Shown: positions 1 through 17,350 of the stretch, piece by piece
Layout of the letters: each line of letters begins with the position of its first letter
Numbering within the stretch: the stretch's first letter is position 1
Assembly (NCBI RefSeq): GCF_000009965.1
Contig: NC_006624.1
Span: forward strand, 330,001 to 362,000
DNA: 32,000 nucleotides
Direction: 5' to 3'
Source: Thermococcus kodakarensis KOD1
GTDB lineage: Archaea; Methanobacteriota_B; Thermococci; Thermococcales; Thermococcaceae
Notes under the pieces: model-generated
The model's input: only the letters and a program-made list of their open reading frames with translations
Told to the model about the DNA's origin: nothing
Databases searched by the model: none
Program-made: the position numbers and the translations under genes

Positions 1-96
1 CTCTTGAAAACGCTCCTCTTCGGCGGGATAATCGTCGGGCTGGTGGGGTATGGCCTGTACAGGGCAAAGAGGAGGCATGACTTTGCAGGCCTCTAA
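1..96 (+). CDS. 3' end of a CDS entering from the left edge; hydrophobic C-terminus (…LLFGGIIVGLVGYGLYRAKRRHDFAGL*), probable membrane protein of the element
   Basis: Frame 1 is open from nt 1 to TAA at 94-96. My own translation shows a TM-like stretch followed by a basic tail. Confidence 0.4.
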   Translation, partial: LLKTLLFGGIIVGLVGYGLYRAKRRHDFAGL

Positions 97-229
97 CTCA
101 CTCAATTGTAAAAGGAAGTATGGGGGGCTGATGGAAAAATAAAGCTCGCTGAGTTGAGCTTTTACGGGAGATAGTAGTTTTTTGTTGTAATCAAAGAAAA
201 TCGGGAACAAAAAAGGAGGTTCGGGATAG

Positions 230-1693
230 ATGGCAGTCTCGACGCGAGCCGCGTCCCCTGCAGAGGTGAACATTCCCCACTTCAACCCAGCCAGCGGGCC
301 GTACCTCGGCAGGCTCATGAGCACGAACAGGAAAGAGAAGCTCTACCTGCCGCTCAAGGTCGGTGAGGCAAACCACATCTTCATCCTCGGAAAGACAGGC
401 TACGGGAAGACCAGCTTCATGAAAGCCCTCGCCGAGGCCCTGTGGGAGTACTACACCAGCAGGGGACAGGAAGTCCTCATTGTGATCTTTGAGAGAAAAT
501 ATGACTACTCAAAGTTCCAGCGCCTGAAGGCGTTTTGGAACAAGCGCGTTGAAGAGCTCGGGAAAGAAGAAGCCACCAGAGTGCACCCGTACCTCGCGGC
601 ATACTTCGGAACCCTTGAGAAGTACCCACAGCTCAAAAGCCAGCTCGGCTTTCCCGGCGACTTTGCAATGAGCATTCCCAACTACATCCTCGCCGAGACG
701 TACGTGACTAGAAAGCCGTATCCAATTGACGTCTTTACCTGGCACGGCCTACAACCCGACAGCTTCCCGACCAGGAGGATAGTCTTCAGGCCGACCAGGG
801 CACCAGAAGCAATCAAGCTCGACAACGGTGGTGGAAAGGTCGAGGTTGCAATCGGCAGGATTCACCTGAGAGACATCAGCTTTGAGATGCTCGCGCGGAA
901 GTTTGACATCCCAAAGGGCACGGCCTACGGCAGGATCCTGAGGAAGTACTGGAAAGTGTACAAGATCCACGACCCTGACGAGATTCTGAGGAGAGTCAAA
1001 GCTGAAGAGCCCTCAATGCGCGAGAGCACTTACGAGAGCCTCAAGAGCATCCTCGACGAGATCAGAGCTGACCCGCTCTACCTGAAAGGCTCAGTCCTCA
1101 AGCCGAAGGCTGAGCAGGTCACTAGAAGCGGAAATGGCATCTATGATGAGCCTAAGCCCTTCACGGACTACCTCACGACCAAAGCCATCAACATCATTGA
1201 TTTTTCAGATAACTCCGAGCTAGACCTCGAGGAGCAGCGCCTAATCATGTACCTGCTCTGGCAGAAGATTAAGCTCATCGCTGGCAGGAAGCGCGTTGAT
1301 GTGTGGCTCTTCTTCGACGAGATTCAGGACCTCATAGGCACGGCAGGCGAGGCCAGCCGCCACAACCTTGCCTGGAAGGCAATGGAGGAAATCTATAGGA
1401 AGGGCCGCTCCCTCTCGGTGAACGTCGTCGCGGGCACACAGTACCTCTACAAGCTGCCAATGAGCCTCATAATGGGTGCCGCCCACATTGCGGTAATCGG
1501 AGCCCTAGCCAGTCCAAAGGATCTCGACATTCTTCGCGTTGCGATAATGGACGGCGAGCGGCTGAGGATTCCAGTCGAGCACGACAGCTTTGAGGAGTTT
1601 CTGAAGCGCCGCAAGAAGAAAGGCCGCGGCTGGTTCTCGTTTGACCGCGAGTTTACCGTCAAGATGTATTTTCGCCCTAATCAAAGCTTTTGA
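230..1693 (+). CDS. HerA/FtsK/VirB4-superfamily P-loop ATPase (DNA-transfer or packaging type)
   Basis: Walker A ILGKTGYGKTS. Walker B VWLFFDEIQDL. RKGRSLSVNVVAGTQY resembles the HerA/VirB4 REGRK…TQ sensor region. GGAGGT SD lies ~10 nt upstream of the ATG. Confidence 0.7.
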   Translation: MAVSTRAASPAEVNIPHFNPASGPYLGRLMSTNRKEKLYLPLKVGEANHIFILGKTGYGKTSFMKALAEALWEYYTSRGQEVLIVIFERKYDYSKFQRLKAFWNKRVEELGKEEATRVHPYLAAYFGTLEKYPQLKSQLGFPGDFAMSIPNYILAETYVTRKPYPIDVFTWHGLQPDSFPTRRIVFRPTRAPEAIKLDNGGGKVEVAIGRIHLRDISFEMLARKFDIPKGTAYGRILRKYWKVYKIHDPDEILRRVKAEEPSMRESTYESLKSILDEIRADPLYLKGSVLKPKAEQVTRSGNGIYDEPKPFTDYLTTKAINIIDFSDNSELDLEEQRLIMYLLWQKIKLIAGRKRVDVWLFFDEIQDLIGTAGEASRHNLAWKAMEEIYRKGRSLSVNVVAGTQYLYKLPMSLIMGAAHIAVIGALASPKDLDILRVAIMDGERLRIPVEHDSFEEFLKRRKKKGRGWFSFDREFTVKMYFRPNQSF

Positions 1694-1705
1694 GAGGTGA
1701 TGAAG

Positions 1706-2458
1706 ATGGTGTGGCCGTTTGGAAGGAAAAAGAAGAAGGCCGAACCGAGGCCCGGGATAGTAATGACAGATGACCAGTTCGCCGAACTCGTCCGCCTGGA
1801 CGACTTCAGCCTTGAGGAGAAAGTAGAGCAGAGAGTCGAGGAGCGCCTGAGGCAACAGAGAATACTCGCGCAGAGAATGAGCCAGATTAAGGAAACCTAT
1901 CAGAAACTCCTTGTCGCAGTCACGCCCGAGGAGGGGAGCATTATACTTGGCTTCCCCGAGGCTTACCTCATAAACTACGATGAGTACTGGATTTACTATC
2001 AGGAGCGCCCGCCGAGCTGGCTTGATTCAGTCTGGTGGAGTCTCGCCAGGTTCTTCGGCAAGAGGCCACCACACAAAGTCCTCAAGGCAAACAAGAAGAT
2101 CGTCCAGTTCAACAACGAAACAATAACCGTGTACTGCAAGACGATTGAAGAGATCGTCGGCACCGGCCAGCAAGAAGCCATCCCTATGGTCGTTCATCCA
2201 GCGATCTCCCGCGGTTGGGAGGCCTACGAGGCCGTCAAGGCCGAGCGGGACAAGTACCGCCAGAAATACTTTGACCTGCTCCACGAGGCCAAAAGAGAAG
2301 TCGAGCTCGCCCTACAGATCAACCCGCGCGTCAAGGTATACTGGAAGGAGAAAGAACAGCAGGGCAAGAAGCAGGAAGAGCGCTTCGGCGGCACAGAGAT
2401 GGCTTTCGAAGAGAATCCCGTAAAGCGGGAGCTGAAGAGCGTCCTCGGTGAGGGATGA
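1706..2458 (+). CDS. Hypothetical protein of the element (alternative starts at 1697 GTG or 1700 ATG)
   Basis: Long ORF with GC-rich codon usage like its neighbours. GAGGTGA SD at 1694-1700. Starts within a few nt of the ATPase gene stop (1691-1693). No recognisable motif. Confidence 0.6.
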   Translation: MVWPFGRKKKKAEPRPGIVMTDDQFAELVRLDDFSLEEKVEQRVEERLRQQRILAQRMSQIKETYQKLLVAVTPEEGSIILGFPEAYLINYDEYWIYYQERPPSWLDSVWWSLARFFGKRPPHKVLKANKKIVQFNNETITVYCKTIEEIVGTGQQEAIPMVVHPAISRGWEAYEAVKAERDKYRQKYFDLLHEAKREVELALQINPRVKVYWKEKEQQGKKQEERFGGTEMAFEENPVKRELKSVLGEG

Positions 2459-2742
2459 TGGAAGTGGTCGAAGACGTAGGGATTCCAGAGGACATTCTAA
2501 AGGACCTCGCCAGCAAGGACATTGCAGAGGAACCGCAGGCGAAGCCAAAGCAGAAGAAGGAAGAGAAGTCTTCAGCATGGGGACTGAAGAAAAAGAAGGA
2601 ACTGAACGAAGAGATACTGAAGGAGATCCAGAAGAAGCTCGCAGAAGCGTGGGAGCTCATGGGAACTGAATACGGGAGAAAATTAATAGAAGACGTGGCG
2701 GTCGAGGTGAAGAAGCTGTGCATAATCAATGATCTGCCTTAA
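2455..2742 (+). CDS. Small Lys/Glu-rich hypothetical protein
   Basis: ATGATG start overlaps the upstream stop (translational coupling). Charged low-complexity sequence. Confidence 0.5.
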   Translation: MMEVVEDVGIPEDILKDLASKDIAEEPQAKPKQKKEEKSSAWGLKKKKELNEEILKEIQKKLAEAWELMGTEYGRKLIEDVAVEVKKLCIINDLP

Positions 2743-2750
2743 CTACCCCT

Positions 2751-3722
2751 TCATAGCTCCAATAGTTTTTTCTCTAATTTTTCTTCGTCTTGAAAGAGTT
2801 CATCTTCTATCCTTTTAATCTTCTCTAATAACTCTCTTGTCAGTGTTTTTAATTCCTTTAGCTTCTTTTCCCTTTCTACGAGTTTATTGTATATCTCCGG
2901 CTTTTTCTCAAGGAGAAACTCGTAGAATACTTTTTTTGCCTTATTCCACACTTCTAGTCCATAAAGGCGTTTTTGCTCTGTATTCAGTCCTAATCTACCA
3001 TAAGGGGGGGCAGACAATTGGTTAGATTCTCTAGTTTCTGTATTGGATAGTGTAACGAGCTCCTCTAAAAGAGTATCGGCTTTAATAATATGTGCTTCTT
3101 TTATGTAGAATCTCTCAGCCTCTTCTTGGGATATCCGCTGTAGAGATTCTACGAGCTTAAATTCTCCCTTTAGTGCGTCTATGACCTCTCTTCTCAACCT
3201 ATTCGTATCCGTAACAAGTGAGTTATATTTCTCCAAATTAATATCATACTCCTTCAACAGCCTTTTGATTTTTCTTTTGAGCCTCTCTTCCAAACCTCGT
3301 TCTTGGTAACTCTTCGCCCATCCTGGAGTCTCCGGAGTCTCGGGAGTTAAGTTAGAATATTGAGGAAGCTCATAATAAATAGGCACCTCGTTATGTAGAG
3401 CATCATTAAGCATATCTTCAAGTTTCTTAATGTATCCAATCACTTCATTTTTCATATATTCAATGTTCATACGTTCTTTTTTCATTTCTATCAGGCTCTT
3501 GTTCATAAGTTCAGCTTGCTTTTTAGTTTGCTCAGCTGCCTCTGCAGTAGTAATTGCTTGGACTGCTATAATACCGGCCATAACAATATTCGCTAGAACC
3601 TCTGTAAATTGTAGGAGTATAGAATTTTGTGTATTAGCTCCAACTAAGGCACCAAATCCGGCAATTAAAACAAAAGCCATTATAATAACCATTACAATCA
3701 TTACTTTTCTATTGCTCTCCAA
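2751..3722 (-). CDS. Membrane-anchored long coiled-coil protein
   Basis: N-terminal hydrophobic segments (VMIVMVIIMAFVLIAGFGALVG and ANIVMAGIIAVQAI), followed by ~250 aa of heptad-like charged sequence. Confidence 0.6.
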   Translation of the reverse strand: MESNRKVMIVMVIIMAFVLIAGFGALVGANTQNSILLQFTEVLANIVMAGIIAVQAITTAEAAEQTKKQAELMNKSLIEMKKERMNIEYMKNEVIGYIKKLEDMLNDALHNEVPIYYELPQYSNLTPETPETPGWAKSYQERGLEERLKRKIKRLLKEYDINLEKYNSLVTDTNRLRREVIDALKGEFKLVESLQRISQEEAERFYIKEAHIIKADTLLEELVTLSNTETRESNQLSAPPYGRLGLNTEQKRLYGLEVWNKAKKVFYEFLLEKKPEIYNKLVEREKKLKELKTLTRELLEKIKRIEDELFQDEEKLEKKLLEL

Positions 3723-3808
3723 TCTTATTCCCTCCTACAAGGGGCAGTCTCAGTATCTGTCAAATTAAACTTTATATTGCTGTACTTTTTACTTTTTCTG
3801 GTGATTAC

Positions 3809-4951
3809 ATGCGGAGGAAGGCCCTAGTCCTAAGCCTAGTAGTGATCTTCCTAGCCGCATTTATCAGCGGATGTATCAACAACGGAGAACCAAAGACAGT
3901 GACAGTCACTAAAACAGTCAGGCCAGAAAAGGAAAGTAATGCTCCAGCGACTACAAGTGCCTCACCGAACACGGCATCACAGTTCACACAAACTACATCC
4001 TCACAGAAAACACCCAAGATAAACTGCAATGACGACTCTTGGAGAGATAACTTTAGCCAAGCCTTGACCTGCGCACTTGATCCCAAGATCAACCACAATT
4101 TTGATCCAGTATATTCCCTCTCCCTAACGGGCAACAAGACCAAAGACGCTCTCATCATTACAGACTTCCTCGTTAACTATGTGCATCTAGATGAGTTTGT
4201 AGAGAACCTGAGCATGAAGAAAGGCCATTATTACAACATTAAAACGCCCTACGAGCTTTTCCAGACGAGACAAGGAACTTATGCAGATATGGCTCTGTTC
4301 GGGGCTTATGCTCTAGCCAAGAACGGCTTTGAGACGTACCTCTTTGAAATAGCAACAACAAACGGCTTTGGAGTACTACCTGGCTTTAAGCTTATAGTTA
4401 ATCATCCATGGGTGCCGAACAACGACCCGCTAGTAATATTCTGGCCATTTAGAATACCAATGCGCCTCTCAGCGGCTTTAAAGCTCTTAAACCTCTCTGG
4501 AGAGACCCCTAAAAATGTAACTGTATACACAGTATCCTATAACTCAGGCAAATATAAAGTTGAGAAAGTTGGGACATATCCAGCCAGTGAATTCAAGTTT
4601 AATATTATGGAGTGGGTTCTTTTCGGATTCCCTGACTCAGAGACTATGAACAGGTTGCTTAGTAGAGACTTCCCCGGCTGTAAGTACACTACAAACCTCT
4701 CGGCAATATCCTCGAACCAAGAAGATGTAAAAAATATCAAAGTAGTGTTTCCATATGGAATCCTATTCTACAACGTTCCATTCAAACAGAGGTACACAGA
4801 AATCTTATACACTCTAATGATCTCAAACCAGGAAATCGCCAAAGATCTTCAGAATTGTAGAGTACTGCTCCTCGGTCCGGAGACTGACTTTGACTTCAAC
4901 AACCCACCAGCAAACTACACAGCAACATACAGCGGTTGGGTGAGCAGATAA
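3809..4951 (+). CDS. Putative lipoprotein, possibly with a degenerate transglutaminase-like core
   Basis: Signal peptide with lipobox FISGC. Ser/Thr-rich linker. RQGTYADMALFGAYALAKNGFETYLF resembles the G-x-C-x-x-F-A…G-I-P-x-R transglutaminase-like core, but Tyr sits at the catalytic Cys position (weak). GGTGAT SD and a TATA-like AAACTTTATATTG lie upstream. Confidence 0.55.
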   Translation: MRRKALVLSLVVIFLAAFISGCINNGEPKTVTVTKTVRPEKESNAPATTSASPNTASQFTQTTSSQKTPKINCNDDSWRDNFSQALTCALDPKINHNFDPVYSLSLTGNKTKDALIITDFLVNYVHLDEFVENLSMKKGHYYNIKTPYELFQTRQGTYADMALFGAYALAKNGFETYLFEIATTNGFGVLPGFKLIVNHPWVPNNDPLVIFWPFRIPMRLSAALKLLNLSGETPKNVTVYTVSYNSGKYKVEKVGTYPASEFKFNIMEWVLFGFPDSETMNRLLSRDFPGCKYTTNLSAISSNQEDVKNIKVVFPYGILFYNVPFKQRYTEILYTLMISNQEIAKDLQNCRVLLLGPETDFDFNNPPANYTATYSGWVSR

Positions 4952-5073
4952 CCCTTTCCTTTTCCCTAATAAGTCCAGTCGTTACCTTTAATATTTAGAT
5001 GAGCAATAATAACCGTACCGTAATATATTTAAGGGCCCCTGACATGTTCCATATTAGAGCCAAGAAATAGATC

Positions 5074-5670
5074 ATGGTGACTAGGATGTCCTATGAGAGC
5101 TTTGCTGAAAAAATAAAGTTTAGATCTGGAGAATTCGACAAAGAACTCTTCAAAAGGATCGTTGAATACATTATAGAAAAGGAATTAGTAACTCCTAAAA
5201 GCATAGAAGTATATAGGAGCGGTGTCGAAGTCAAGATACGAGCAATTGCAGAGATGATGTTAGTCGATGAATTTGATCTAGATATAGTCCAAGCAGTTGA
5301 TTATCTAAGTATTGCTTCATTTGTAATCTCAATGACCATACTTTCAAAAATAGAGGGGAACGAACCATCTGATGAGCTAGAAAAGTACATTATCGAAAAA
5401 TTATATACCCCACAGATTAAGGAAATGTTCCTTACCAGAAAATTCATGACGAACCCTATCTTGGAAGAATTTGAAGTCATTAAATTTGTTAAAGATACTC
5501 CTGAAGGGCCCCTTGAAAGCTATGGGGTAAGAATACTAATAGATAAATCAGGAGACAGAGATTTTGACGAGGTATTCCTCGAAACGACAAAAGGCACTCT
5601 CCAAGAGATTGTTAATTACATCAGCGAGGTGATCTCTGATGATGCCCGCAAGAATAGTGAAAAAGAATAA
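5074..5670 (+). CDS. Hypothetical protein, first gene of a three-gene operon
   Basis: ORF with a TATA-like TAATATATTTAAG ~45 nt upstream. Overlaps the next gene by 32 nt. No motif recognised. Confidence 0.55.
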   Translation: MVTRMSYESFAEKIKFRSGEFDKELFKRIVEYIIEKELVTPKSIEVYRSGVEVKIRAIAEMMLVDEFDLDIVQAVDYLSIASFVISMTILSKIEGNEPSDELEKYIIEKLYTPQIKEMFLTRKFMTNPILEEFEVIKFVKDTPEGPLESYGVRILIDKSGDRDFDEVFLETTKGTLQEIVNYISEVISDDARKNSEKE

Positions 5671-6118
5671 AACCTTTTACCATCCCTTTGAAAAGGTATT
5701 CTCTTACAGTAACGTTCGTGAGGTACGCTCTGACCTCATCATAGCTGAAAAGGAAACCTTATTAGATGACATTATCAATGAACTCAGAGAACATTATGGA
5801 CACGTATTCCATGAATCAGTATACACAGAGGATATCTCTGAGAATAAAGCAAAACGTGAAGACAAAATCAAGGCCATTGCTGAGGGTATATTAAAAACAA
5901 TAAAAGAAGTTCCTCACTTAAAGAGACTAGTGCCTATGATTAAAGTTGCTATAGACTTAAACGAAGATTACAACACGAACTTCTTCTATATTATCGTATC
6001 TCTACGGAAGGACAAGATAGAAGAAGCCGCTGATGCTTTTGATAAGCTAGAGGAGAACATCCTTTCTAAGTACCCTGATAAAGATATACGCATTCTCTAT
6101 ACACTCCAAAGTGCTTAA
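5639..6118 (+). CDS. Hypothetical protein, second gene of the three-gene operon
   Basis: GAGGTGAT SD 5 nt upstream of the ATG at 5639, located inside the end of the upstream gene. No nucleotidyltransferase GS…DxD motif. Confidence 0.55.
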   Translation: MMPARIVKKNKTFYHPFEKVFSYSNVREVRSDLIIAEKETLLDDIINELREHYGHVFHESVYTEDISENKAKREDKIKAIAEGILKTIKEVPHLKRLVPMIKVAIDLNEDYNTNFFYIIVSLRKDKIEEAADAFDKLEENILSKYPDKDIRILYTLQSA

Positions 6119-6139
6119 ATCCTGGAGGGATCCCCCGCA

Positions 6140-6718
6140 ATGGAACCCGAAGAATTCAAGGAACTTGCAAGATATTTAGAGGGACTCCTTAACGAACGCA
6201 ATATTACAAAAGAGATCTCAAATGAGGCCATCGTAAGAACTACAATTGGAAGATACTATTATTACATTTTTCTGAAACTCAGAAATGAGATTATTGATGC
6301 AATAGACAATACAATAGACGTGTATAAAAAGGAAAATCCCAAATATGTAGTTTCACTCACTCAGCTGAAAAAAGCTATAGAGCCTGTTTTACCTGGCACT
6401 AGCAAGTCATCAAAAACCAGTGTCCACCAAGTTATCCAACTGTTCCTGGATGAATTCGCAGACTTAACCGTAGCGGATGCCTTGTATAGACTCAGATGGC
6501 GTCGCAATTTTGCAGATTATCACTTAAAAACACCAATAGAAACCAAACTCCGTGGAGAAGAAATAACTATAAAATTCCAACGTGAAGAACTTGTAATGAT
6601 ACGGCGCGATATCGCAAAGATAGAGAAATGGTTGCAAGAAAAAAGATTTCCAATACATAGCGCACTAAACTCAGAAGAAGCTCCAGAAAAAATTGAAAGC
6701 ATACTAAAAACCAAATGA
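6140..6718 (+). CDS. HEPN-like protein (putative RNase/toxin domain)
   Basis: N-terminal helix AIVRTTIGRYYYYIFLKLRNEI resembles the HEPN sRaYYa.Fha helix. LYRLRWRRNFADYH contains an Rx5H / R..ADY HEPN signature. GGAGGGAT SD upstream. Confidence 0.5.
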   Translation: MEPEEFKELARYLEGLLNERNITKEISNEAIVRTTIGRYYYYIFLKLRNEIIDAIDNTIDVYKKENPKYVVSLTQLKKAIEPVLPGTSKSSKTSVHQVIQLFLDEFADLTVADALYRLRWRRNFADYHLKTPIETKLRGEEITIKFQREELVMIRRDIAKIEKWLQEKRFPIHSALNSEEAPEKIESILKTK

Positions 6719-6760
6719 AAATAATTTTTCATATCCTACTCATCTGTCAACACCTCTCAA

Positions 6761-6790
6761 TGAGACGACCGTTTAATGGTAAACCCATAG
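6761..6790 (+). promoter_or_regulatory. Degenerate copy of the conserved 30-nt box upstream of the AbrB paralogs (TGAGACGACCGTTTAATGGTAAACCCATAG), followed by hairpin GTCGGAC-aac-GTCCGAC (6817-6833)
   Basis: 19/30 matches to the 8871 box with a shared core TTAAYGGTAAACC. A strong TATA-like TTATAAAATATAT at ~6838-6850 precedes the ATG at 6892. Confidence 0.45.
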
Positions 6791-6891
6791 GCATTAATTC
6801 TCGAAAAATAAACAAGGTCGGACAACGTCCGACATAGTTATAAAATATATGACCTCAATAATTACGATAATTATACTAGGAGTTGAGGCCA

Positions 6892-7266
6892 ATGCCCGAC
6901 CAGGACGCCAGCGAAGCAAGGGTAGTCGAGCCACTAGCCAAGTTTCATGCGAAAGTCACTAGGGGTGGTCAGTTCACATTTCCATTATACACCCGGCTTT
7001 ATCATAACCTCGACGTTGGGGACTACGTTGAATTAATCATAAGAACCAAAGTGGATGGCGAAGTGCTCAGAGGGATGTTCATAGCCAGACTCGTTGATAA
7101 GGGCAATATTACAATACCCAAGGGCCTTAGGAGCGAGATGAAAATTGACCAGAATTCGATTATAGAAGTCATAGTTGTCAGGGCATACCGGCTGAAAGAC
7201 TTATTGGGAGACAAAGCCAAGTTTATACGTCAATTAGCCCTCAAAAAATACAAGATTCTCACTTGA
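6892..7266 (+). CDS. Tandem SpoVT/AbrB-domain DNA-binding protein, paralog 1 (divergent N-terminus)
   Basis: Two swapped-hairpin-like halves (GGQFTFPLYTRLYHNLDVGDYVELII and KGNITIPKGLRSEMKIDQNSIIEVIV). EPLAKFHAK is shared with paralogs 2-4. The ATG at 6892 sits in the same GAG-TGAG-CCAATG context as the other copies; the track start at 6883 is TTG. Confidence 0.65.
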   Translation: MPDQDASEARVVEPLAKFHAKVTRGGQFTFPLYTRLYHNLDVGDYVELIIRTKVDGEVLRGMFIARLVDKGNITIPKGLRSEMKIDQNSIIEVIVVRAYRLKDLLGDKAKFIRQLALKKYKILT

Positions 7267-7699
7267 ATCTTAGCTCTGTAAGCTTTTTGAGAATCCAAAA
7301 GCAAGAATAGACCATACCCAAAGATACCATAAAACTGGCAAGAACTAAGTACCCAAAAATTCTGTTGTGCGGTAAGCTTGCCCCACCAATTATTGAAAGT
7401 GTTAAGACAACAAGCAGAAACATGAACGTAACATAATATATGGTATAACTCTGTTTAAAGGACTTAAACTGTTGTAGTTCTCTATATATCTCTACATCGG
7501 GGAGGGCATGTAATATTGTAACTCCCACTAATACGAATCCCGCGAGGGCGCCTGAGATTGATGCCATTGTCCAGTAGAAATCGGGAGTAGGATCTAACAC
7601 TTTCAGAGGTCCATGAATGGTTAGAACTATCACACATATAAATGCAATAAGCCCCCCAACAATGCCCCTGCGAAGTATCTTGGGAAGCATTACACTCAT
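7259..7699 (-). CDS. Small integral membrane protein (~4 TM helices), second gene of a two-gene operon
   Basis: Four hydrophobic stretches (GIVGGLIAFICVIVLTI, ISGALAGFVLVGVTIL, YYVTFMFLLVVLTLSII, FGYLVLASFMVSLGMVY). Starts 17 nt after the upstream stop. The 3' end overlaps the convergent AbrB paralog 1 by 8 nt. Confidence 0.65.
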   Translation of the reverse strand: MSVMLPKILRRGIVGGLIAFICVIVLTIHGPLKVLDPTPDFYWTMASISGALAGFVLVGVTILHALPDVEIYRELQQFKSFKQSYTIYYVTFMFLLVVLTLSIIGGASLPHNRIFGYLVLASFMVSLGMVYSCFWILKKLTELRFK

Positions 7700-7716
7700 G
7701 ATTTAGAGCTACAATT

Positions 7717-8730
7717 TTAACCTTTTAAAGACTTTTCAATTTTGTCATATAGGTCATTGTAAGCCTCAATGATTTTATTATACATATATTCTGTGTCCAC
7801 TCTTGATAGCTCTTCCTTAGCACGGATAACCTTTTTAGTAGAAATCAGTTTGTCCTCAAAAATATGCTTTTCTTTTAGTTCGTGCGTTTTAGGATCTTCG
7901 TATTTTATAATGATATTCTCCACAACCCCTAATTTATCGTTTATCCTCATCAAGTCATTCAAAAGCGAAATTACGGTGTCTTTTGAGAGTCTCTTCTTTT
8001 TATACCGTCCATCCACTACTGCTTTTATTTCAACTAAGTCAGGCTCTAAGAGATAAATATAATCTCCTAACAAATCTGTTATGTCTTCTTCCATTTTCTT
8101 TTCATGTTTCATATAATAGGCATACTTTGTTGCTGCCATTTTTATATGCATTGAAACTACGCGAGGCGATCTTAAAAGTTCCTCAATAAACTCTCTATAG
8201 TATACCTCATCGAGATCAATTATATTTGGCTGTCCAAATAGATACTTGCTAAGGAAATATTTTAACTGATATACTGTAGGCCCCTCTTTATATCTCTCCA
8301 TCCCAACTATGCCATTAGGAAAAACAACAAAGTGGGTCGGATAATACAGTCTCTCCTTTCGGCTTTTATCTAACTGTATACCATCTTCATGACCAGCTTC
8401 ATCAATTTTTGTGGGAAGATCTCTCTCCTTCCCATACCCAATTCTCGCTGTGATAAGCCCTCTCTCAGGCCCACCCACCCATGGAATCAGATTGAATCTC
8501 GATGGATCGTCCCTAATTAGGATTAGATCTTGCCCTGGTGTATACCGAGTTTCTAAAATGCTATTCATGGATAGGTTACTATCAAGAAAATCAAATGGAT
8601 CATTTAGGAAATCTTCAAACTTTTTTCGAAACCTTGGGTCGAGTATTTTCCCCTGCTTGTAATTCTTCAAAATAGCGTCCCCTGGAATTAATCTGTAAAA
8701 GTATATCTTACGCTCCAGATACTCTTTCAT
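7717..8730 (-). CDS. 337-aa soluble hypothetical protein, first gene of a two-gene operon with the 4-TM protein
   Basis: Long AT-rich ORF. ATG at 8730 is preceded by GGGGGAC (the track start at 8757 is GTG). No catalytic motif recognised. Confidence 0.6.
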   Translation of the reverse strand: MKEYLERKIYFYRLIPGDAILKNYKQGKILDPRFRKKFEDFLNDPFDFLDSNLSMNSILETRYTPGQDLILIRDDPSRFNLIPWVGGPERGLITARIGYGKERDLPTKIDEAGHEDGIQLDKSRKERLYYPTHFVVFPNGIVGMERYKEGPTVYQLKYFLSKYLFGQPNIIDLDEVYYREFIEELLRSPRVVSMHIKMAATKYAYYMKHEKKMEEDITDLLGDYIYLLEPDLVEIKAVVDGRYKKKRLSKDTVISLLNDLMRINDKLGVVENIIIKYEDPKTHELKEKHIFEDKLISTKKVIRAKEELSRVDTEYMYNKIIEAYNDLYDKIEKSLKG

Positions 8731-8870
8731 ATTAGTCCCCCATCTAAGTTTACACACCCACTTAAATAATTTCCGTACGTAATCCTTACGCCCTACCTTA
8801 GTGTTTCAGTTTTACCCTTCTCATACCGCTTAGAATCCAGAGAGGTCAAGGTAAAGCCTGAGAAGGCTAC

Positions 8871-8900
8871 TGAATCAGTCGCTTAACGGTAAACCTTATG
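8871..8900 (+). promoter_or_regulatory. Conserved 30-nt box TGAATCAGTCGCTTAACGGTAAACCTTATG in the divergent intergenic region between the 337-aa gene and AbrB paralog 2
   Basis: 28/30 identical to 11468-11497. Contains a BRE/TATA-like GTAAACCTTATG. Followed by the weak inverted repeat CTTATG-n11-CATAAG. Confidence 0.55.
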
Positions 8901-8952
8901 AGGATTTCAACCATAAGAATAATTCGTAAAATCAGCACACTGAGGTGAGCCA

Positions 8953-9372
8953 ATGAAAGAAACCAAAGAACCACTAGCGAAGTTTCAAGCAAAGATGAAC
9001 AAGGATGGAAGGGTTAGCCTCCCAAAGCAAATAAAGGATGTTCTAGAACTTGAATCAGATGATTACCTAAAGGTTATAATCCGCAAGATAAAAGCAAAAA
9101 AAGATGAGGGAATTATCTATGTTTATGGGCAAGAATTTGCCATCCTAAGGGTTGGAGTCAGAGGATACGTTGTGGTTCCACAGAAGGTTCGTAGACAGCT
9201 CAAACTCAAACCAGATGATAGTGTTGAAATAGTAATCCTCGATTATTATCCATCAACCACCGATCCTCAAAACATTGGAAAGCTAACTGAAGCTACAAGA
9301 TTCAAATATCTTTTTTCACCAGAAACAGGAGATCCAAACGGAACTAGAAAATATGCAGAGGTGGTCTCATGA
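8953..9372 (+). CDS. Tandem SpoVT/AbrB-domain DNA-binding protein, paralog 2
   Basis: MKETKEPLAKFQAK leader. GRVSLPKQIKDVLELESDDYLKVII and RGYVVVPQKVRRQLKLKPDDSVEIVIL halves. GGTGAGCCA precedes the ATG. Confidence 0.7.
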   Translation: MKETKEPLAKFQAKMNKDGRVSLPKQIKDVLELESDDYLKVIIRKIKAKKDEGIIYVYGQEFAILRVGVRGYVVVPQKVRRQLKLKPDDSVEIVILDYYPSTTDPQNIGKLTEATRFKYLFSPETGDPNGTRKYAEVVS

Positions 9373-9794
9373 AAGAAACCAAAGAACCACTAGCGAAATT
9401 TCAAGCAAGGGTTAACAAAGACAACCGCGTAACTATCCCTCGGCCAATCCTCGAAGCATTCGGCCTAAAACAAAACGACTACGTCAAAGTTCTAATCAGA
9501 AAAATCGAAATATCAGACAAAACAGTTACGGTAATCGCTCAAGCCCTTCTGGCAGTGAAAATCGGAAAGTATGGAGCCATAACACTCCCAAAAAAACTCG
9601 TAAAAGAGTTTGAGTTGAGAGAAAACGAGCCGGTTGAAGTCATCATTTTGGATTATTACAAATTCGAGGAGTTAGTAAGTGAAAAAGGCAAAGAGCTTTT
9701 ATCCAAGCTTCAGTCAAGAAACAACTACTGGATTCTTCCGGCCGATTCTCAATATCTGTCTGAGATAGGTATCAAATACAAATATCTTTTTTGA
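9369..9794 (+). CDS. Tandem SpoVT/AbrB-domain DNA-binding protein, paralog 3
   Basis: ATGA overlap with paralog 2. NRVTIPRPILEAFGLKQNDYVKVLI and GAITLPKKLVKEFELRENEPVEVIIL halves. Its first 29 nt are identical to paralog 2, and the first 26 nt are identical across paralogs 2-4. Confidence 0.7.
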   Translation: MKETKEPLAKFQARVNKDNRVTIPRPILEAFGLKQNDYVKVLIRKIEISDKTVTVIAQALLAVKIGKYGAITLPKKLVKEFELRENEPVEVIILDYYKFEELVSEKGKELLSKLQSRNNYWILPADSQYLSEIGIKYKYLF

Positions 9795-9897
9795 GCGTTT
9801 AATATATACATATATATAATAATTCTTGAAAAAGAAGAAAGAAGAGAAGAGATAAGGCATGTTTTCTGTCCGCTGATGGCTTCTTTTCTGAAGGTTA

Positions 9898-9917
9898 AAT
9901 TTTTGTATCCAAAAATT
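9898..9917. repeat. 20-nt perfect palindromic repeat AATTTTTG-TATC-CAAAAATT, copy 1
   Basis: Identical to 10060-10079. 8-bp inverted arms with a 4-nt spacer. Confidence 0.8.
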
Positions 9918-10059
9918 CTGGCTGATTCAACTAGGAAAAGTAACGGCTCTTTGGATGAATAAGACGTTTTTAGAGCTTTGCACTTCTGTGCACTTAACTA
10001 CTTTTGAACGTTGCAAAATTGAGACCTCTAAATTATTACTTATTGTGGTATTTCAGCAG

Positions 10060-10079
10060 AATTTTTGTATCCAAAAATT
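10060..10079. repeat. 20-nt perfect palindromic repeat AATTTTTG-TATC-CAAAAATT, copy 2
   Basis: Identical to 9898-9917, 162 bp away, inside a ~400-bp non-coding AT-rich region. Confidence 0.8.
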
Positions 10080-10155
10080 AGACGTAACAACTCTGCCCAA
10101 CGTTGAACTTCTCCAGCCACACAAAACTTATAAACTTTCCATCCGTACGATTTAT

Positions 10156-10168
10156 GTGGAAATTCCAC
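10156..10168. promoter_or_regulatory. Palindrome GTGGAA-A-TTCCAC preceded by CCGTACGATTTATG; candidate promoter/operator of the 53-aa RHH-like gene
   Basis: Perfect 6-bp arms. The position and flanking CCGTAC-AT-TTA-G motif mirror the site at 12213-12243 upstream of the paralogous RHH gene. Confidence 0.45.
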
Positions 10169-10202
10169 TTAAGTGAAATATCCACAATAAGGTGGTGATG
10201 GG

Positions 10203-10364
10203 ATGCCGAAGAGGAGGAAGTGGAGGGCTGTGAGAAGGATCGAGGTTCAGCTTCCGCCGGAGAAGGCGGATGAGCTTGAGCAGGCTAAGGGAAAGCTCTC
10301 TTGGGGCGACTTCGTTTGGAAACTTTGGGAGTTCTGGAAGCTTCACCACCCTGAAACATCTTGA
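10203..10364 (+). CDS. Small RHH-like protein (53 aa), paralog of the 12266-12433 product; not in the ORF track
   Basis: My translation is MPKRRKWRAVRRIEVQLPPEKADELEQAKGKLSWGDFVWKLWEFWKLHHPETS. It aligns with KRFEAWIPYEVYKEMEAVKQRLGASWSELVQSMWEVYK of the 12266 ORF. GGTGGTGAT SD upstream. Confidence 0.55.
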   Translation: MPKRRKWRAVRRIEVQLPPEKADELEQAKGKLSWGDFVWKLWEFWKLHHPETS

Positions 10365-10375
10365 AGGTGTTATGA

Positions 10376-10552
10376 ATGCCAGCGAAGAGATACCAGCGAC
10401 GTTCAGCAGGCCCTGGACGGCCACGAAAATACGGGGAAGACTTAAAGAAGTTCCAATCTCCAGTTCCCGAATCAACATACGACGGGCTGGTCCCATTATA
10501 CTCGTTGTGCACTGTGCATAATGATTATGCAAGATGCATAACACTTATATAG
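10376..10552 (+). CDS. Small protein (58 aa) with a GPGRPRK AT-hook-like motif; looks like a truncated paralog of the N-terminus of the 12439-13467 product; not in the ORF track
   Basis: My translation is MPAKRYQRRSAGPGRPRKYGEDLKKFQSPVPESTYDGLVPLYSLCTVHNDYARCITLI. The 12439 protein starts MRIPARGPGRPRKWKSP. AGGTG SD 6 nt upstream. Confidence 0.45.
   Translation: MPAKRYQRRSAGPGRPRKYGEDLKKFQSPVPESTYDGLVPLYSLCTVHNDYARCITLI
10515..10531. promoter_or_regulatory. Palindrome TGCATAAT-g-ATTATGCA with a third TGCATA and the TATA-like CTTATATAG; candidate promoter/operator for the 49-aa ORF
   Basis: Perfect 8-bp arms. The TATA-like box at 10544-10552 lies ~32-40 nt upstream of the ATG at 10584. A 12-bp palindrome TTCCGTACGGAA at 10557-10568 lies between them. 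Confidence 0.45.
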
Positions 10553-10583
10553 TTTCTTCCGTACGGAATTATGGTGAGAGAAG

Positions 10584-10733
10584 ATGGCAAAATTTAATGG
10601 GTACGAACTGACCCTAGAAACTCCAGAAGAGCTCCAAAACTTTGTCATGGCATTCGAAAAAGCCAACAAACGCAACCCAAAAGAAGTAGAAGACACCGTT
10701 AAGAGAGCCCTGGCTATCGCCGGCCTTATCTGA
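10584..10733 (+). CDS. Small hypothetical protein (49 aa), convergent with and overlapping the GNAT gene by 8 nt; not in the ORF track
   Basis: GGTGA SD 8 nt upstream of the ATG. My translation is MAKFNGYELTLETPEELQNFVMAFEKANKRNPKEVEDTVKRALAIAGLI. Confidence 0.4.
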   Translation: MAKFNGYELTLETPEELQNFVMAFEKANKRNPKEVEDTVKRALAIAGLI

Positions 10734-11310
10734 GTTCTTTACCTCCCAAATGTTTTATTAAAGCCCTTCTAACTTCCATCGCTTCATTAACAAACGGATA
10801 GAATAATTCATATGTGCCACCCTTAGAAACAACCTGGAATCCACTTGCTAGAGGGTCTCTTTCAGGATTCAAATAAAACCTCTTTGCCACTTTCTTATCA
10901 GCGTGAAGAGACAACCCTACACCACCAATTTGAGCCGCATAAAGAACCGCATAAGGCTTAATTACCTTTGCTAGTAGTTCTCCGCCAATTCTCTTTCCCC
11001 GATATTCCTTCTGAAGACAGAACTGGCCAAGAAGAATAGTGGGCACAGAAGAATACTTGATGTCCATTCCCACCAACTTTACGAGCTTCTTCCTCAAGTC
11101 TTCAATAAGTTCCTTTTTAGATTCTTCCATATCCTTACGGATTTTAAGGCTAACTATAAACGGAGAAAGAGTAAAATAAGAGATGAGTTGACCTTCCTCA
11201 CCAAGAACAACAAAAACCGTTGAAAGGCATCTCCTATGAACATCCCACGCTTCTCGCCTAGCAAACTTCGTCTGCTCTTCTCCACCCTCACCACAATCAA
11301 CACCCCTCAT
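10726..11310 (-). CDS. GNAT-family N-acetyltransferase
   Basis: Acetyl-CoA motif A (LQKEYRGKRIGGELL = Q/R-x-x-G-x-G/A). Size (194 aa) and beta-alpha pattern are typical of GNATs. Confidence 0.65.
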   Translation of the reverse strand: MRGVDCGEGGEEQTKFARREAWDVHRRCLSTVFVVLGEEGQLISYFTLSPFIVSLKIRKDMEESKKELIEDLRKKLVKLVGMDIKYSSVPTILLGQFCLQKEYRGKRIGGELLAKVIKPYAVLYAAQIGGVGLSLHADKKVAKRFYLNPERDPLASGFQVVSKGGTYELFYPFVNEAMEVRRALIKHLGGKELR

Positions 11311-11467
11311 TACTCTGCATTATCCTCTCTCAAAAATTCTACCCGAACCTTCTCTCCAAGAGTATCCAATGTAACTTCGTAGGGTTTTATCATCCCGACA
11401 CCAAACCCAAGTCCCGATGCAGGCTTTAAGTAAATTACGGATGGAAAGATTACTTCGCACTGTCTTG

Positions 11468-11497
11468 TGAATCAGTCACCTAACGGTAAACCTTATG
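11468..11497 (+). promoter_or_regulatory. Conserved 30-nt box TGAATCAGTCACCTAACGGTAAACCTTATG between the GNAT gene and AbrB paralog 4, followed by hairpin TGTATGCCC-ga-GGGCATACA (11496-11515)
   Basis: 28/30 identical to 8871-8900. The 9-bp-arm inverted repeat overlaps its 3' end. Confidence 0.55.
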
Positions 11498-11563
11498 TAT
11501 GCCCGAGGGCATACAAAAAACAAGCAATACACCATTAACTAAAATCCAAAAGAGGGTGAGCCA

Positions 11564-12001
11564 ATGAAAGAAACCAAAGAACCACTAGCAAAATTCCACG
11601 CACGGCTCGATAAGGAAGGGAGGATAGCTATCCCCAAGACAATTAGAGAAGCGTTGAACATAGAGAAGAACGATTACGTTGAGGTTATTGTTCGTAAAAT
11701 TGAGATCAATCCTGAGAAATCAATAATCAAAGTTCTTAAGCAAGGGTATTTGGTAGCCAGGGTAGGAGCTAAAGGGTTAATTTTCCTTCCAGCCGATCTC
11801 AAACGTGATTTCGACCTCCACGAGAAAGATATCATTGAAGTTTTGCTGCTTGGATATCACAAATTTGACGAATTGGTCAGTGAAAAAGGCAAAAAACTGC
11901 TCTCAAAGGTTCAAACATCGGGCAAATGGATTGAGGTCAAGCAGGATGAACTCATTCCAGAGGATAAAGTAATGAAACATTTCACTTATGTTTTTGTTTG
12001 A
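11564..12001 (+). CDS. Tandem SpoVT/AbrB-domain DNA-binding protein, paralog 4
   Basis: MKETKEPLAKFHAR leader. GRIAIPKTIREALNIEKNDYVEVIV and KGLIFLPADLKRDFDLHEKDIIEVLLL halves. The C-terminal FDELVSEKGKKLLSK is shared with paralog 3. Confidence 0.7.
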   Translation: MKETKEPLAKFHARLDKEGRIAIPKTIREALNIEKNDYVEVIVRKIEINPEKSIIKVLKQGYLVARVGAKGLIFLPADLKRDFDLHEKDIIEVLLLGYHKFDELVSEKGKKLLSKVQTSGKWIEVKQDELIPEDKVMKHFTYVFV

Positions 12002-12224
12002 GTTTAATATTAAGTACTTAAAATTAAAGAAAGAGAAAAGAGAAGAATAGAGAAGAGTGTTGGTCTTTTGGCGTATTCTCATGGCTTCTTTAGAACCTCT
12101 CAAATTAATATGCAGGAAAAATATTTCTAATTACTACTATAAAGCGTCATAAGTTGAACTCTTTTGGAGACCCTTATACACTGTTGTCCACGAAATCTTT
12201 TTAAGGAAATCTTCCGTACTATCT

Positions 12225-12243
12225 TACGAGAAATATTCTCGTA
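12225..12243. promoter_or_regulatory. Palindrome TACGAGAA-ata-TTCTCGTA preceded by CTTCCGTACTATCTTACG; candidate promoter/operator of the backbone RHH gene
   Basis: Perfect 8-bp arms ~25 nt upstream of the ATG at 12266. Its architecture parallels 10144-10168. Confidence 0.45.
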
Positions 12244-12265
12244 TGAGAAAAAATCTCGTAAGGTG

Positions 12266-12433
12266 ATGGCAGTGGGAAGGCGGGGGAAGTATGATGGACC
12301 TGTCAAACGCTTCGAAGCGTGGATACCATATGAAGTCTACAAGGAGATGGAGGCTGTAAAACAGCGGTTAGGTGCTTCTTGGTCAGAACTTGTTCAGAGC
12401 ATGTGGGAAGTATACAAAGCTACGAGAAGGTGA
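12266..12433 (+). CDS. Small RHH-like DNA-binding protein (55 aa)
   Basis: The internal ATG at 12266 follows an AT-rich promoter-like region. The track start at 12164 is TTG and spans the palindrome. RFEAWIPYEVYKEMEAVKQRLGASWSELV fits a strand-helix-helix pattern. Confidence 0.55.
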   Translation: MAVGRRGKYDGPVKRFEAWIPYEVYKEMEAVKQRLGASWSELVQSMWEVYKATRR

Positions 12434-12438
12434 ATCTT

Positions 12439-13467
12439 ATGAGAATACCCGCGAGAGGTCCAGGCCGACCAAGAAAATGGAAGAGCCCGCTAATACAATG
12501 GAGAAGCGATGTACCTTTAGAGGATTTTGAATTTGCTGAGGAGAAAAGGACTGAATTGGGCCTCTCGCGGGCAGAATTCTTCCATGCTCTCTTACACCAC
12601 ACCAACTGGAGTGTGGTAGAGCTTCATGCAGAAAATAAAAAGAAAGACGAGCTTCTCGAAGAGAAAGACCGCTACATTGAGGAGCTGGTGAAACTTCTTG
12701 AAAAAGAGCGTCAGGCCCGTGAAAGGGCCGAGAAAGAGGCCGAAGCCTGGAAGCAAAAGTACTACGAGCTTAAGGGCGAGAAGCCAGCCCACACCTACAA
12801 CGAGGGCAAGCTCCTCCGCCAGCTTGCTGAGAACGCGAAGGAAGACGTCTCGTGGGCCGACCTCTGCGCTGAGGTTCTTGACCTAAGAGATGAGAAGAAG
12901 ATGCGCCGGCTCATGAGCCTTGCCTTCAACATCGAGAAGTCGGACAAGAACAACTACAAGAGCATTTTCTACCCGAAGAGGACAGCTCCAGAGTTCAAGG
13001 GTTGGGTTCTCAAGCGTCCGGAGCGCGACGGCCCGGTTCTGCTGGTCGACTACGTCCTCTACAAGGAAGACACCCTCAAGGCGGCTAAGGGCCTCGCTGT
13101 GGGGGAGGCCGCGGCCGAGAAGGTTCCTGAGGTCAAGCCTTTGAAGACCGGAAAGGCGGCCGAGCGCTGGCTTGAGATGTTCTTCGAGGTCGTCCACCGC
13201 AATTACATGGACTTGATCAACCAGAAGCGCGGCAAGGACGCGGTGAAGTACCTGGAAGAGGCCGTGCCGGAGAAGCTTGAGCAGGTCCTCCAGGACATTG
13301 ATCCAGCAGACTGGCGCCGCGCAGTGCTGGCAGTGCTCGATGAGCTTGAGGCCAGGGCTGAAGGGGATGAGAGGTATGAAGTTTTCGTTTCTAACCTGCG
13401 GCGCGTTGTTCTGCGCGCCCTGAACGAGTTTTACGCAAAACCTGCCGAGGTGAAGGCCGATGTCTGA
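12439..13467 (+). CDS. 342-aa protein with N-terminal GPGRPRK AT-hook-like / RHH-like region, a central coiled coil and an unknown C-terminal domain
   Basis: GGTGA SD 6 nt upstream of the ATG at 12439. LSRAEFFHALLHH is RHH-like. EKERQARERAEKEAEAWKQKYYELKGEK is a coiled coil. Confidence 0.6.
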   Translation: MRIPARGPGRPRKWKSPLIQWRSDVPLEDFEFAEEKRTELGLSRAEFFHALLHHTNWSVVELHAENKKKDELLEEKDRYIEELVKLLEKERQARERAEKEAEAWKQKYYELKGEKPAHTYNEGKLLRQLAENAKEDVSWADLCAEVLDLRDEKKMRRLMSLAFNIEKSDKNNYKSIFYPKRTAPEFKGWVLKRPERDGPVLLVDYVLYKEDTLKAAKGLAVGEAAAEKVPEVKPLKTGKAAERWLEMFFEVVHRNYMDLINQKRGKDAVKYLEEAVPEKLEQVLQDIDPADWRRAVLAVLDELEARAEGDERYEVFVSNLRRVVLRALNEFYAKPAEVKADV

Positions 13468-16887: not shown

Positions 16888-17273
16888 GGAATATGACCGC
16901 AACAGCAATAACTTGGTGGGGCGCAGGTCAGAATTGGTGGAGTTTTATGGATAAATATGGAGGAAAGCGCCATAAAAAGACAGATGTGCACATTACTCTT
17001 GACCAGGACGTCCTTCAAGAACTGGACAGATTGGACGTCGTGAGGTCTCGTTTTATCAACAGCCTGCTAAGGGCGGCTCTCTTTGGAGATGAGCCGACTG
17101 TAGTCGTGAAATTGCTTTTAGAAAAGCGTGCGGTAGAATTCTGGTGCCCCGGCCGGGATTTGAACCCGGGGCGCGGGCTCGAAAGGCCCGCATGTTTGAC
17201 CGGGCTACACCACCGGGGCTCGATATTAGGGAAGGAAGACCGTTTAAAAATCTTTCGGGTCTGGTACCACTGA
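16881..17273 (+). pseudogene. Probable int(N): N-terminal fragment of an SSV-type integrase split by integration. The ORF reads into and across the tRNA-Glu gene.
   Basis: About 87 element-encoded codons (including the RHH-like HITLDQDVLQELDRLDVVRSRFINSLLRAAL) run into the tRNA 3' end at 17142 (…VEFWCPGRDLNPG is the tRNA T-arm read in antisense). No catalytic R…HxxR…Y region follows. Confidence 0.5.
17142..17219 (-). tRNA. tRNA-Glu (anticodon UUC), CCA encoded
   Basis: The reverse complement GCCCCGGTGGTGTAGCCCGGTCAAACATGCGGGCCTTTCGAGCCCGCGCCCCGGGTTCAAATCCCGGCCGGGGCACCA folds as a cloverleaf. The acceptor stem is GCCCCGG/CCGGGGC, the anticodon stem CGGGC/GCCCG with loop CTTTCGA, and the T-arm CCGGG-TTCAAAT-CCCGG. 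A TATA-like TTTTTAAAC lies ~25-35 nt upstream on the minus strand. Confidence 0.9.
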
Positions 17274-17350
17274 TTGAGCACCACTGCATTAGAGGCAGTA
17301 ATCCCAAGCTGGACGGAAATCTTTTTAACCGTTCTCATAAGCCGAAAGCG

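Follow-up and report, generated by a model that had tools for sequence, protein, structure and literature searches.

The window studied here is a stretch of 32,000 nucleotides from Thermococcus kodakarensis KOD1 (contig NC_006624.1, positions 330,001 to 362,000 of the forward strand), and positions refer to it unless another locus is named. Three of its genes, TK0399, TK0400 and TK0401 (g1, g2 and g3), follow each other on the same strand and are the subject of this text. It should be kept in mind that all functional statements on this cassette rest on computation. The reading towards which we lean, with moderate confidence, is that TK0401 is a HEPN toxin held inactive by TK0400, with TK0399 as scaffold or sensor, and that the three genes form a mobile toxin or defence cassette of the integrated plasmid TKV2. 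The features of the locus, with protein lengths in amino acids (aa), are as follows.

5024-5035, + strand: TATA-like element TATATTTAAGGG, read from the sequence; putative promoter
5074-5670, + strand: g1, TK0399, predicted COMMD-like protein, 198 aa (open reading frame; identity from RefSeq)
5626-5632, + strand: Shine-Dalgarno-like GAGGTGA for g2, within g1, 6 nucleotides 5' of ATG 5639
5639-6118, + strand: g2, TK0400, the HEPN partner, 159 aa (open reading frame)
6124-6129, + strand: Shine-Dalgarno-like GGAGGG for g3, in the gap between g2 and g3, read from the sequence
6140-6718, + strand: g3, TK0401, HEPN protein of the retron type IX kind, predicted RNase, 192 aa (open reading frame; HEPN_IX match)
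6639-6644, + strand: A6 homopolymer in the tail of g3, whose length differs between strains
6725-6729, + strand: T5 run just 3' of the g3 stop, possible archaeal terminator

The three genes are translationally coupled. The original prediction, made from the letters of this DNA, had described them as co-directional and coupled, and their sizes, the 32-nucleotide overlap of g1 and g2, the 21-nucleotide gap before g3 and the internal Shine-Dalgarno sequences are all found as it said. A programmed frameshift that would fuse g1 to g2, which lies in the +1 frame relative to g1, was considered and rejected, because the internal Shine-Dalgarno sequence and ATG account for the coupling. The real start of g1 is probably ATG 5086, giving 194 aa, instead of 5074: RefSeq and all homologues start there, nucleotide homology to diverged copies starts exactly there, and GGTGA is found at 5076-5080.

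By sequence comparison TK0401 is a member of the HEPN superfamily, of the kind found in type IX retrons. It matches the PADLOC model HEPN_IX, which describes the effector of these retrons, with an E-value of 5.6e-7, and no model in Pfam or NCBIfam. The family becomes visible only by profile, because single-sequence searches are nearly empty: among 5.8 billion proteins there were three matches for g3 and four for g1, and an exhaustive phmmer search with g3 gave seven. A profile from six remote phmmer relatives retrieved 72 proteins from Thermococcus, Methanocaldococcus and Nitrospirota/Magnetominusculus, some of them labelled PF05168 or UPF0332. In the family alignment (A2, 47 sequences), 43 members match HEPN_IX and 10 match the Pfam HEPN family PF05168. 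Further, the family profile matches the solved HEPN protein of Retron-Kva2 (PDB 36ht_I) over nearly its full length with an E-value of 5.8e-5, and the HEPN entry PDB 9xbd with 3e-4. These matches bear out the earlier claim that the third protein is HEPN-like, and the two peptides quoted for it, IGRYYYYIFLKLRNEI and LYRLRWRRNFADYH, are present in the sequence.

The motif put forward as a HEPN hallmark, Rx5H / R..ADY, stood in part. R122, D126 and Y127 do not vary, whereas H128 lacks conservation, its place being taken by E, K, R, D or N in other members of the family, which is why we do not read the motif as Rx5H. In A2 the invariant residues are R33 (codon 6236-6238), Y40, Y41, H96 (6425-6427), R122 (6503-6505), D126 and Y127 (6515-6520), and the near-invariant ones include R38 and R48. 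When Kva2 is added to the alignment, its H64 falls on H96 and its R122 on R122, while D126, Y127 and the three helix-1 arginines match too. As judged from the alignment, the catalytic arrangement is thus a non-canonical histidine in helix 3 with an arginine in helix 4 (R-N-x-x-D-Y).

According to structural papers from 2026, the retron IX HEPN protein has no Rx4-6H motif; H64 of helix 3 and R122 of helix 4 come from opposite protomers and form a composite site across the dimer. Mutagenesis of Kva2 found both residues to be required for defence and for RNA cleavage. The enzyme cuts tRNA and rRNA, is toxic and needs caging. Since this arrangement has already been described and mutated in type IX retrons, TK0401 is a HEPN protein of a known, recently solved kind.

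The loss of the canonical histidine can also be read in another way, namely that TK0401 is a catalytically dead HEPN fold, acting as a nucleotide or ligand binder or as a structural subunit, and that the role of the cassette is unrelated to RNA cleavage. Some HEPN domains of the PF05168/UPF0332 class are regarded as non-catalytic, and the Rx4-6H histidine is indeed not conserved here. However, the retron IX HEPN protein, equally devoid of Rx4-6H, is an active RNase through H64 and R122, and in the 47 sequences the counterparts of these two residues show little or no variation, as do the three arginines of helix 1. We consider a dead enzyme very unlikely. This is one of three alternatives weighed in this text, all of which we rank below an inhibited HEPN toxin.

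The length of the A run in the tail of g3 determines the length of the protein: A6 in KOD1 gives 192 aa, A5 in locus L004 gives 175 aa (P0002) and A7 in Thermococcus sp. JCM 11816 gives 173 aa (P0003). The 192-aa tail is the form conserved in two diverged loci, L005 and L006. In the short forms the C-terminal tail is missing, including a [RK]-[YF]-P-I-H stretch conserved in both of these loci. The differences are either sequencing errors or on/off variation. Elsewhere in the family, g3 is split by an insertion of about 1.8 kb in L038 (3001-3195 and 4983-5321) and by a frameshift in L037 (1012-1483). Both copies look inactivated, as expected of a toxin gene.

Next to g3, the most constant element of these loci is g2. 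A g2-like open reading frame lies directly upstream of 35 of the 38 g3-family genes, at a distance of -60 to +120 nucleotides and often overlapping. With the g3 profile, 33 additional loci were found in genomes and metagenomes. A hidden Markov model (HMM) built from 14 g2 sequences of the window and genome loci found g2 in 18 of the 23 independent metagenome loci, and in 21 after iteration. The three exceptions are two metagenome loci and the second g3 copy of L007, and in each the upstream open reading frame has the same pattern by eye. The linkage of g2 and g3 is obligate across Thermococcus, Methanocaldococcus and Nitrospirota.

In the alignment of the g2 family (A3) a C-terminal domain of about 80 residues is shared by every group. 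Its pattern is helix, strand, acidic turn, strand, helix, '...SKYP' and strand, ending in ...SKYP-x-x-[IVL]x[IVL]. TK0400 has a basic N-terminal tail, and the shared domain covers approximately residues 70-157 (5846-6109). A single-sequence AlphaFold2 (AF2) model places there, with moderate confidence, helix 70-89, strands 100-107 and 113-123, helix 124-144 and strand 149-157, i.e. an alpha-beta-beta-alpha-beta domain; a second domain of this type is possible with low confidence. The hairpin formed by the first two strands is acidic across the family. No C-terminal helix-turn-helix (HTH) was detected in g2.

When the g2 model is compared with known structures by Foldseek, cytoplasmic domains of MamM and other cation diffusion facilitator (CDF) proteins are found, with a template modelling (TM) score of 0.64-0.71, a root-mean-square deviation (rmsd) of 2.6 A and a probability of 0.97-1.0. 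A weak Pfam match to ZT_dimer (E-value 0.011) agrees with this. The authors of the Kva2 structure liken the HEPN-binding domains of the retron partner, HB1 and HB2, to the cytoplasmic domains of zinc transporters of the CDF type, and one of these domains sits on the HEPN active site. Another group describes an acidic patch of the domain they name KH1, which masks the basic face of HEPN. With low confidence, g2 may be likened to this partner by fold class and context only.

In Nitrospirota the g2-g3 pairs occupy a fixed chromosomal spot, with tsaD on one side and, in two loci, tatC on the other, and no signs of mobile elements were seen in the flanks inspected. Together with the fact that one group uses KH, the name of an RNA-binding fold, for the domains of the retron IX partner, this could indicate a non-toxic complex, in which the HEPN protein and a KH-like partner process or protect RNAs of the element or host with no growth arrest. 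We find this account distinctly unlikely. The closest characterised relatives are toxic RNases that need caging. The archaeal copies either lie in variable plasmid regions of low GC or have as neighbours type I restriction-modification genes, a pair of a HEPN protein and a minimal nucleotidyltransferase (MNT) and, by eye, a putative CRISPR-associated RAMP gene. Moreover, the patchy, horizontally moved distribution is unlike that of a housekeeping factor.

For g1 there is no sequence match in Pfam (E-value up to 1), PADLOC, NCBIfam or PDB. It is an acidic protein, with an isoelectric point (pI) of 4.6. An AF2 model from an alignment of four sequences has a mean predicted local distance difference test (pLDDT) of 72.8, with 77-95 for residues 20-120. 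It consists of a helical N-terminal domain (approximately 5131-5442) and a COMM-like beta-beta-beta-alpha domain (approximately 5458-5664). In a Foldseek search of PDB the top 17 matches are all COMMD or COMMD-like, with E-values of 2e-5 to 1e-3 and probabilities of 0.99-1.0, and include the human Commander ring and the bacterial octameric COMMD-like protein 9q6a. Against the isolated COMM domain 6bp6 the TM-score is 0.62 and the rmsd 3.3 A. A fold search of BFVD with g1 gave nothing significant. From the model, TK0399 is predicted to be COMMD-like, with a helical HN domain followed by a C-terminal COMM domain. The original prediction had recognised no domain in either upstream protein, and the predicted folds of g1 and g2 go beyond it. 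Its statement that an MNT partner is missing was confirmed, as neither g1 nor g2 has a nucleotidyltransferase match in Pfam or NCBIfam.

Diverged copies of the triad were found in three places: in T. argininiproducens (L005), on a Logan contig (L006) and on a short contig from JGI (L003). Their amino-acid identity to KOD1 is about 72% for g1, 43-50% for g2 and 46-49% for g3 (72%, 50% and 47%, respectively, for T. argininiproducens and a metagenome contig). Gene order and a g1/g2 overlap of 32-35 nucleotides are kept in all three, while the neighbouring genes are unrelated to those of KOD1 and include MCM-type elements. The three genes therefore move as a cassette. An element TATTTAAGGG or TATTTAAAGG, corresponding to the TATA-like sequence of KOD1, is also found 5' of these triads. 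It is the sole conserved non-coding feature, and the other flanking DNA cannot be aligned. The ratio of nonsynonymous to synonymous substitution rates (dN/dS) against the diverged copies is 0.07-0.2 for all three genes, and 0.07-0.17 for g1, i.e. they are under purifying selection. A scan of IMG/VR for relatives of g3 found none.

One further candidate was discarded. L002 (Logan SRR25206301, 3903 bp, corresponding to 3813-7687 of the window) seemed to hold a homologous quartet of genes at 66-79% identity, but 802 of its 804 mismatches to the window are C-to-T changes, and it is thus converted KOD1 DNA. The conversion suggests a bisulfite-type library, and the protein P0007 derives from this contig. 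In protein searches, contigs converted in this way can masquerade as diverged relatives.

On a larger scale the conserved unit is the g2-g3 pair rather than the triad, and the first gene is replaceable. The idea that the triad is conserved as a unit thus holds for L005, L006 and L003, where the genes travel together, but not for the family in general, where only the pair is constant. In sequence g1 is more conserved than g2 or g3, whereas the place it occupies is the one that varies most. The first gene encodes a DUF3467 protein in L007, L017, L034, L037 and L038, a helical protein of 116-138 aa in the second copy of L007 and in L023, a protein of 154 aa in L030 and L033, one of 217 aa in L039 and a membrane peptide of 61 aa in L035. 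It is absent in several Methanocaldococcus pairs, and in Nitrospirota it is replaced by TPR-like repeats fused to g2.

The overlap of 32-35 nucleotides between the first and second gene is also kept in the DUF3467 triad of L007. The first genes of L007 and L017 match DUF3467 with E-values of 3.6e-11 and 9.2e-8, while TK0399 has no match to this family (PF11950) in Pfam. When g1 is compared with DUF3467 by hhalign, only the C-terminal tail is aligned, at a probability of about 1%, and a relationship between COMM and DUF3467 therefore stays a guess. In the overlap (5639-5670 in the window, 4536-4570 in L007) the peptides are similar in both frames. The first proteins end in '...DDARKNSEKE' in Thermococcus and in '...NDESKKNEKKE' in the DUF3467 triad of Methanocaldococcus, and the second proteins start with 'MMPARIVKKNK' and 'MMNPKRMRKRSR', respectively. 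These peptides hint that the C-terminus of g1 and DUF3467 may be of common ancestry.

In L007 (Methanocaldococcus sp. 10A) two different triads stand in tandem within 4 kb, at 1126-2458 and 4244-5549. In one of them the first gene encodes a helical protein and g2 is so diverged that the HMM misses it; in the other the first gene belongs to DUF3467. They are followed immediately downstream by two transposase genes of the insertion sequence (IS) type.

The region that contains the cassette is TKV2, an integrated plasmid of the pT26-2 family. It is identified by the tRNA-Glu at 17142-17219 (-), by a HerA-like DUF87 ATPase at 230-1693 and by the markers of the pT26-2 family that a nearly identical element in Thermococcus sp. 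JCM 11816 carries. The cassette is in the variable part of TKV2, within an island of 36-44% GC at approximately 2700-12500, compared with 52-58% in the rest of the genome and of TKV2. The element of JCM 11816 is 98.7% identical to positions 1-6957 of the window; it then diverges, about 240 bp past g3, and carries other cargo beyond. The island is therefore a mosaic of at least two acquisitions.

A location on integrated plasmids would also suit a plain type II toxin-antitoxin (TA) addiction module. TK0400 would then be a labile antitoxin that binds TK0401 and perhaps represses the operon, and TK0399 an accessory chaperone or regulator that takes no part in sensing or in a higher-order assembly. 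The overlapping order with the antitoxin first is typical of TA pairs, and many relatives of the cassette are simple two-gene pairs. In addition, the Methanocaldococcus partners begin, by eye, with a ribbon-helix-helix-like 'MPTKITIELPQSL...' stretch, and genes of AbrB/MazE type crowd the same island. An addiction module leaves unexplained, however, why g1 is the most conserved gene (72% versus 50% and 47%), and why a hypervariable, tightly coupled first gene should turn up in such a variety of forms. It overlaps heavily with our own reading and differs from it mainly in the role of g1 and in the pay-off. We regard it as possible, if on the whole unlikely.

For the inhibited toxin that we favour, the following mechanism can be proposed. 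TK0401 most likely dimerises, so that the active site would consist of H96 of one protomer and R122 of the other, and by homology to the characterised enzymes free TK0401 would cut tRNA and/or rRNA and thereby arrest growth. The acidic-hairpin domain of TK0400 may cover the basic catalytic surface of the HEPN dimer and hold the enzyme inactive, as its fold class and its linkage to g3 suggest; such masking would parallel that by the HB1/KH1 domain of the retron IX partner. TK0401 is a basic protein, with a pI of 8.6-9.3. The weakest step concerns TK0399, which would act as scaffold or sensor and determine at what point the inhibitor lets go of the toxin, a role that in type IX retrons is filled by the reverse transcriptase (RT) and the multicopy single-stranded DNA (msDNA). 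The pay-off would be plasmid maintenance or abortive infection. Taken as a whole, the cassette resembles a toxin module of retron type that does not depend on RT.

A more specific version is that TK0399 forms a ring of 8-10 subunits, a protein-only scaffold that cages TK0400-masked HEPN dimers and would be the RT-free counterpart of the msDNA-scaffolded ring of retron IX. We think it improbable. If it were true, it would give prokaryotic COMMD-like proteins a first function, as organisers of an RNase of a conflict system. The slot of the first gene, with COMMD-like, DUF3467, TPR and other proteins, would then hold interchangeable sensors or scaffolds for one toxin-inhibitor pair.

A number of observations weigh against the inhibited toxin or parts of it. 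The alpha-beta-beta-alpha-beta fold is very common. The g2 model has low confidence, with a mean pLDDT of 58 and 62-80 in the C-terminal domain, and its Foldseek E-values are only 0.02-0.06. The g2 family has no significant sequence match in PDB or PADLOC, including the retron IX partner, and the gene order is reversed relative to type IX retrons, where the HEPN gene comes first. The fold of g3 is taken from its sequence homology to the solved 36ht_I. The COMM-like domain of g1 has a pLDDT of 55-69, and the global TM-scores of g1 to COMMD chains are about 0.3. The position next to tsaD in Nitrospirota suits a housekeeping role better than a mobile toxin. Finally, TKV2 can be deleted in its entirety, reportedly at the cost of slower growth (Tagashira 2013, as described in a citing paper), but this is uninformative on the cassette.

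Several other genes of the region deserve mention. Just upstream of the cassette, at 3809-4951, a protein of 380 aa has a lipobox-type signal peptide (...FISGC) and no family match. It accompanies the triad in KOD1 and JCM 11816, not in L005 or L006. Four genes with the AbrB/MazE (SpoVT-AbrB) fold are distributed across the island (6883-7266, 8953-9372, 9369-9794 and 11564-12001). Three of the proteins are about 140 aa long, with the DNA-binding fold in their C-terminal half, and the triad of L006 also adjoins two genes of SpoVT-AbrB type. A DUF6731 protein of 346 aa at 7717-8757 (-) is followed by a membrane protein of 146 aa at 7259-7699 (-) with a weak RexB match (E-value 0.0011); they may be a second abortive-infection-like pair of the same island. 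At the expected attachment site of TKV2, an open reading frame of 441 aa at 17144-18469 (+) overlaps the tRNA-Glu on the opposite strand. It may be a fragment of an SSV-type integrase, and in Pfam it has a weak SFM1-like match only.

In the literature we found no paper on TK0399, TK0400 or TK0401, nor on a link between COMMD and HEPN proteins. The proposal of an undescribed three-component arrangement is therefore defensible, as none was found, except that the HEPN protein is of a known kind. As far as we could find, there is no earlier description of the family of g2 partners, of this arrangement without RT or of a COMMD-like protein as its first gene product, while TK0401 is a new archaeal member of a solved kind of HEPN protein.

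The structures of type IX retrons date only from 2026, and the HEPN protein and its partner were taken to be specific to retrons. The cassette indicates that the same unusual HEPN protein, with a small partner of masking type, circulates without RT in archaea and Nitrospirota. It is therefore possible that the effector pair is the older entity, a self-contained module captured by retrons. Further, the 32-nucleotide overlap of a predicted COMMD-like gene with the HEPN partner gene gives a concrete hypothesis for a family whose function in prokaryotes is explicitly unknown. T. kodakarensis is genetically tractable, and the three genes are open to direct deletion, mutation and expression.

Among known systems the type IX retrons (Retron-Kva2, Sen3 and Yin1), with an effector module of a HEPN RNase and a partner named WH or KH-HTH, come closest, as their HEPN protein belongs to the same sequence family as g3. 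Both have the helix-1 pattern R-x4-RYYY-x-FL-x-x-R, the histidine of helix 3 and R...DY in helix 4, with no conserved Rx4-6H. In both, the HEPN gene lies beside the gene of its partner and is coupled to it, and a basic HEPN protein is combined with an acidic patch on the partner. The retron partner has alpha-beta-beta-alpha-beta domains, and one such domain is predicted for g2. In contrast, the retron partner has two HEPN-binding domains and a C-terminal winged HTH, while g2 is without a recognisable HTH, and the cassette has a third, COMMD-like gene. Its host is archaeal and hyperthermophilic, whereas the reported hosts of type IX retrons are bacteria, for the most part Pseudomonadota. A Pfam scan of 23 open reading frames (230-21604) revealed no RT domain, and none was found beside the diverged triads, which makes msDNA implausible. 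Likewise, no Rfam family scored above threshold in 2500-13000, in a scan that included no dedicated search for retron noncoding RNA.

In HEPN-MNT pairs (UPF0332/PF05168 and DUF86), too, a toxin with a HEPN domain is carried by mobile elements or defence islands. The R-x-x-x-D-Y motif is common to the g3 family and the UPF0332 class, as in 'RWKADY' of the HEPN protein of L014 and 'RNRSDY' of PDB 9xbd. These type VII systems differ in that g2 is of another protein family and in that the helix-3 histidine is invariant in the g3 family. As there is no nucleotidyltransferase partner, neutralisation by AMPylation is unavailable to the cassette. L014 gives a direct contrast: at 13-3592, flanked by the methylase gene and the specificity gene of a type I restriction system, it holds a UPF0332-type HEPN-MNT pair immediately upstream of a g2-g3 pair, and both kinds of HEPN are thus present in one defence island.

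Tripartite toxin-antitoxin-chaperone (TAC) and other three-gene TA systems are operons of a toxin, a neutralising partner and an accessory protein, which resembles the organisation of the cassette. Scans of the cassette against Pfam, PADLOC and NCBIfam gave no SecB-like chaperone or other TAC component.

The last comparison concerns g1. Prokaryotic COMMD-like proteins, of which 361 have been listed, assemble into rings of 8 or 10 subunits; their hosts include archaea, Thermococcus among them, and sequence similarity is limited for the prokaryotic members (Liu et al. 2026, PMC13392464; PDB 9q6a and 9q6c). In that paper neither a function nor any predicted complex with the products of adjacent genes is reported, and the contexts it describes are clusters resembling type VI secretion systems (T6SS) in Myxococcota. 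Type IX retrons, for their part, form rings of 8-10 modules. TK0399 has the same predicted two-domain architecture as the prokaryotic COMMD-like proteins, HN followed by a C-terminal COMM domain, and differs from them in that its gene overlaps, by 32 nucleotides, the partner gene of a HEPN cassette.

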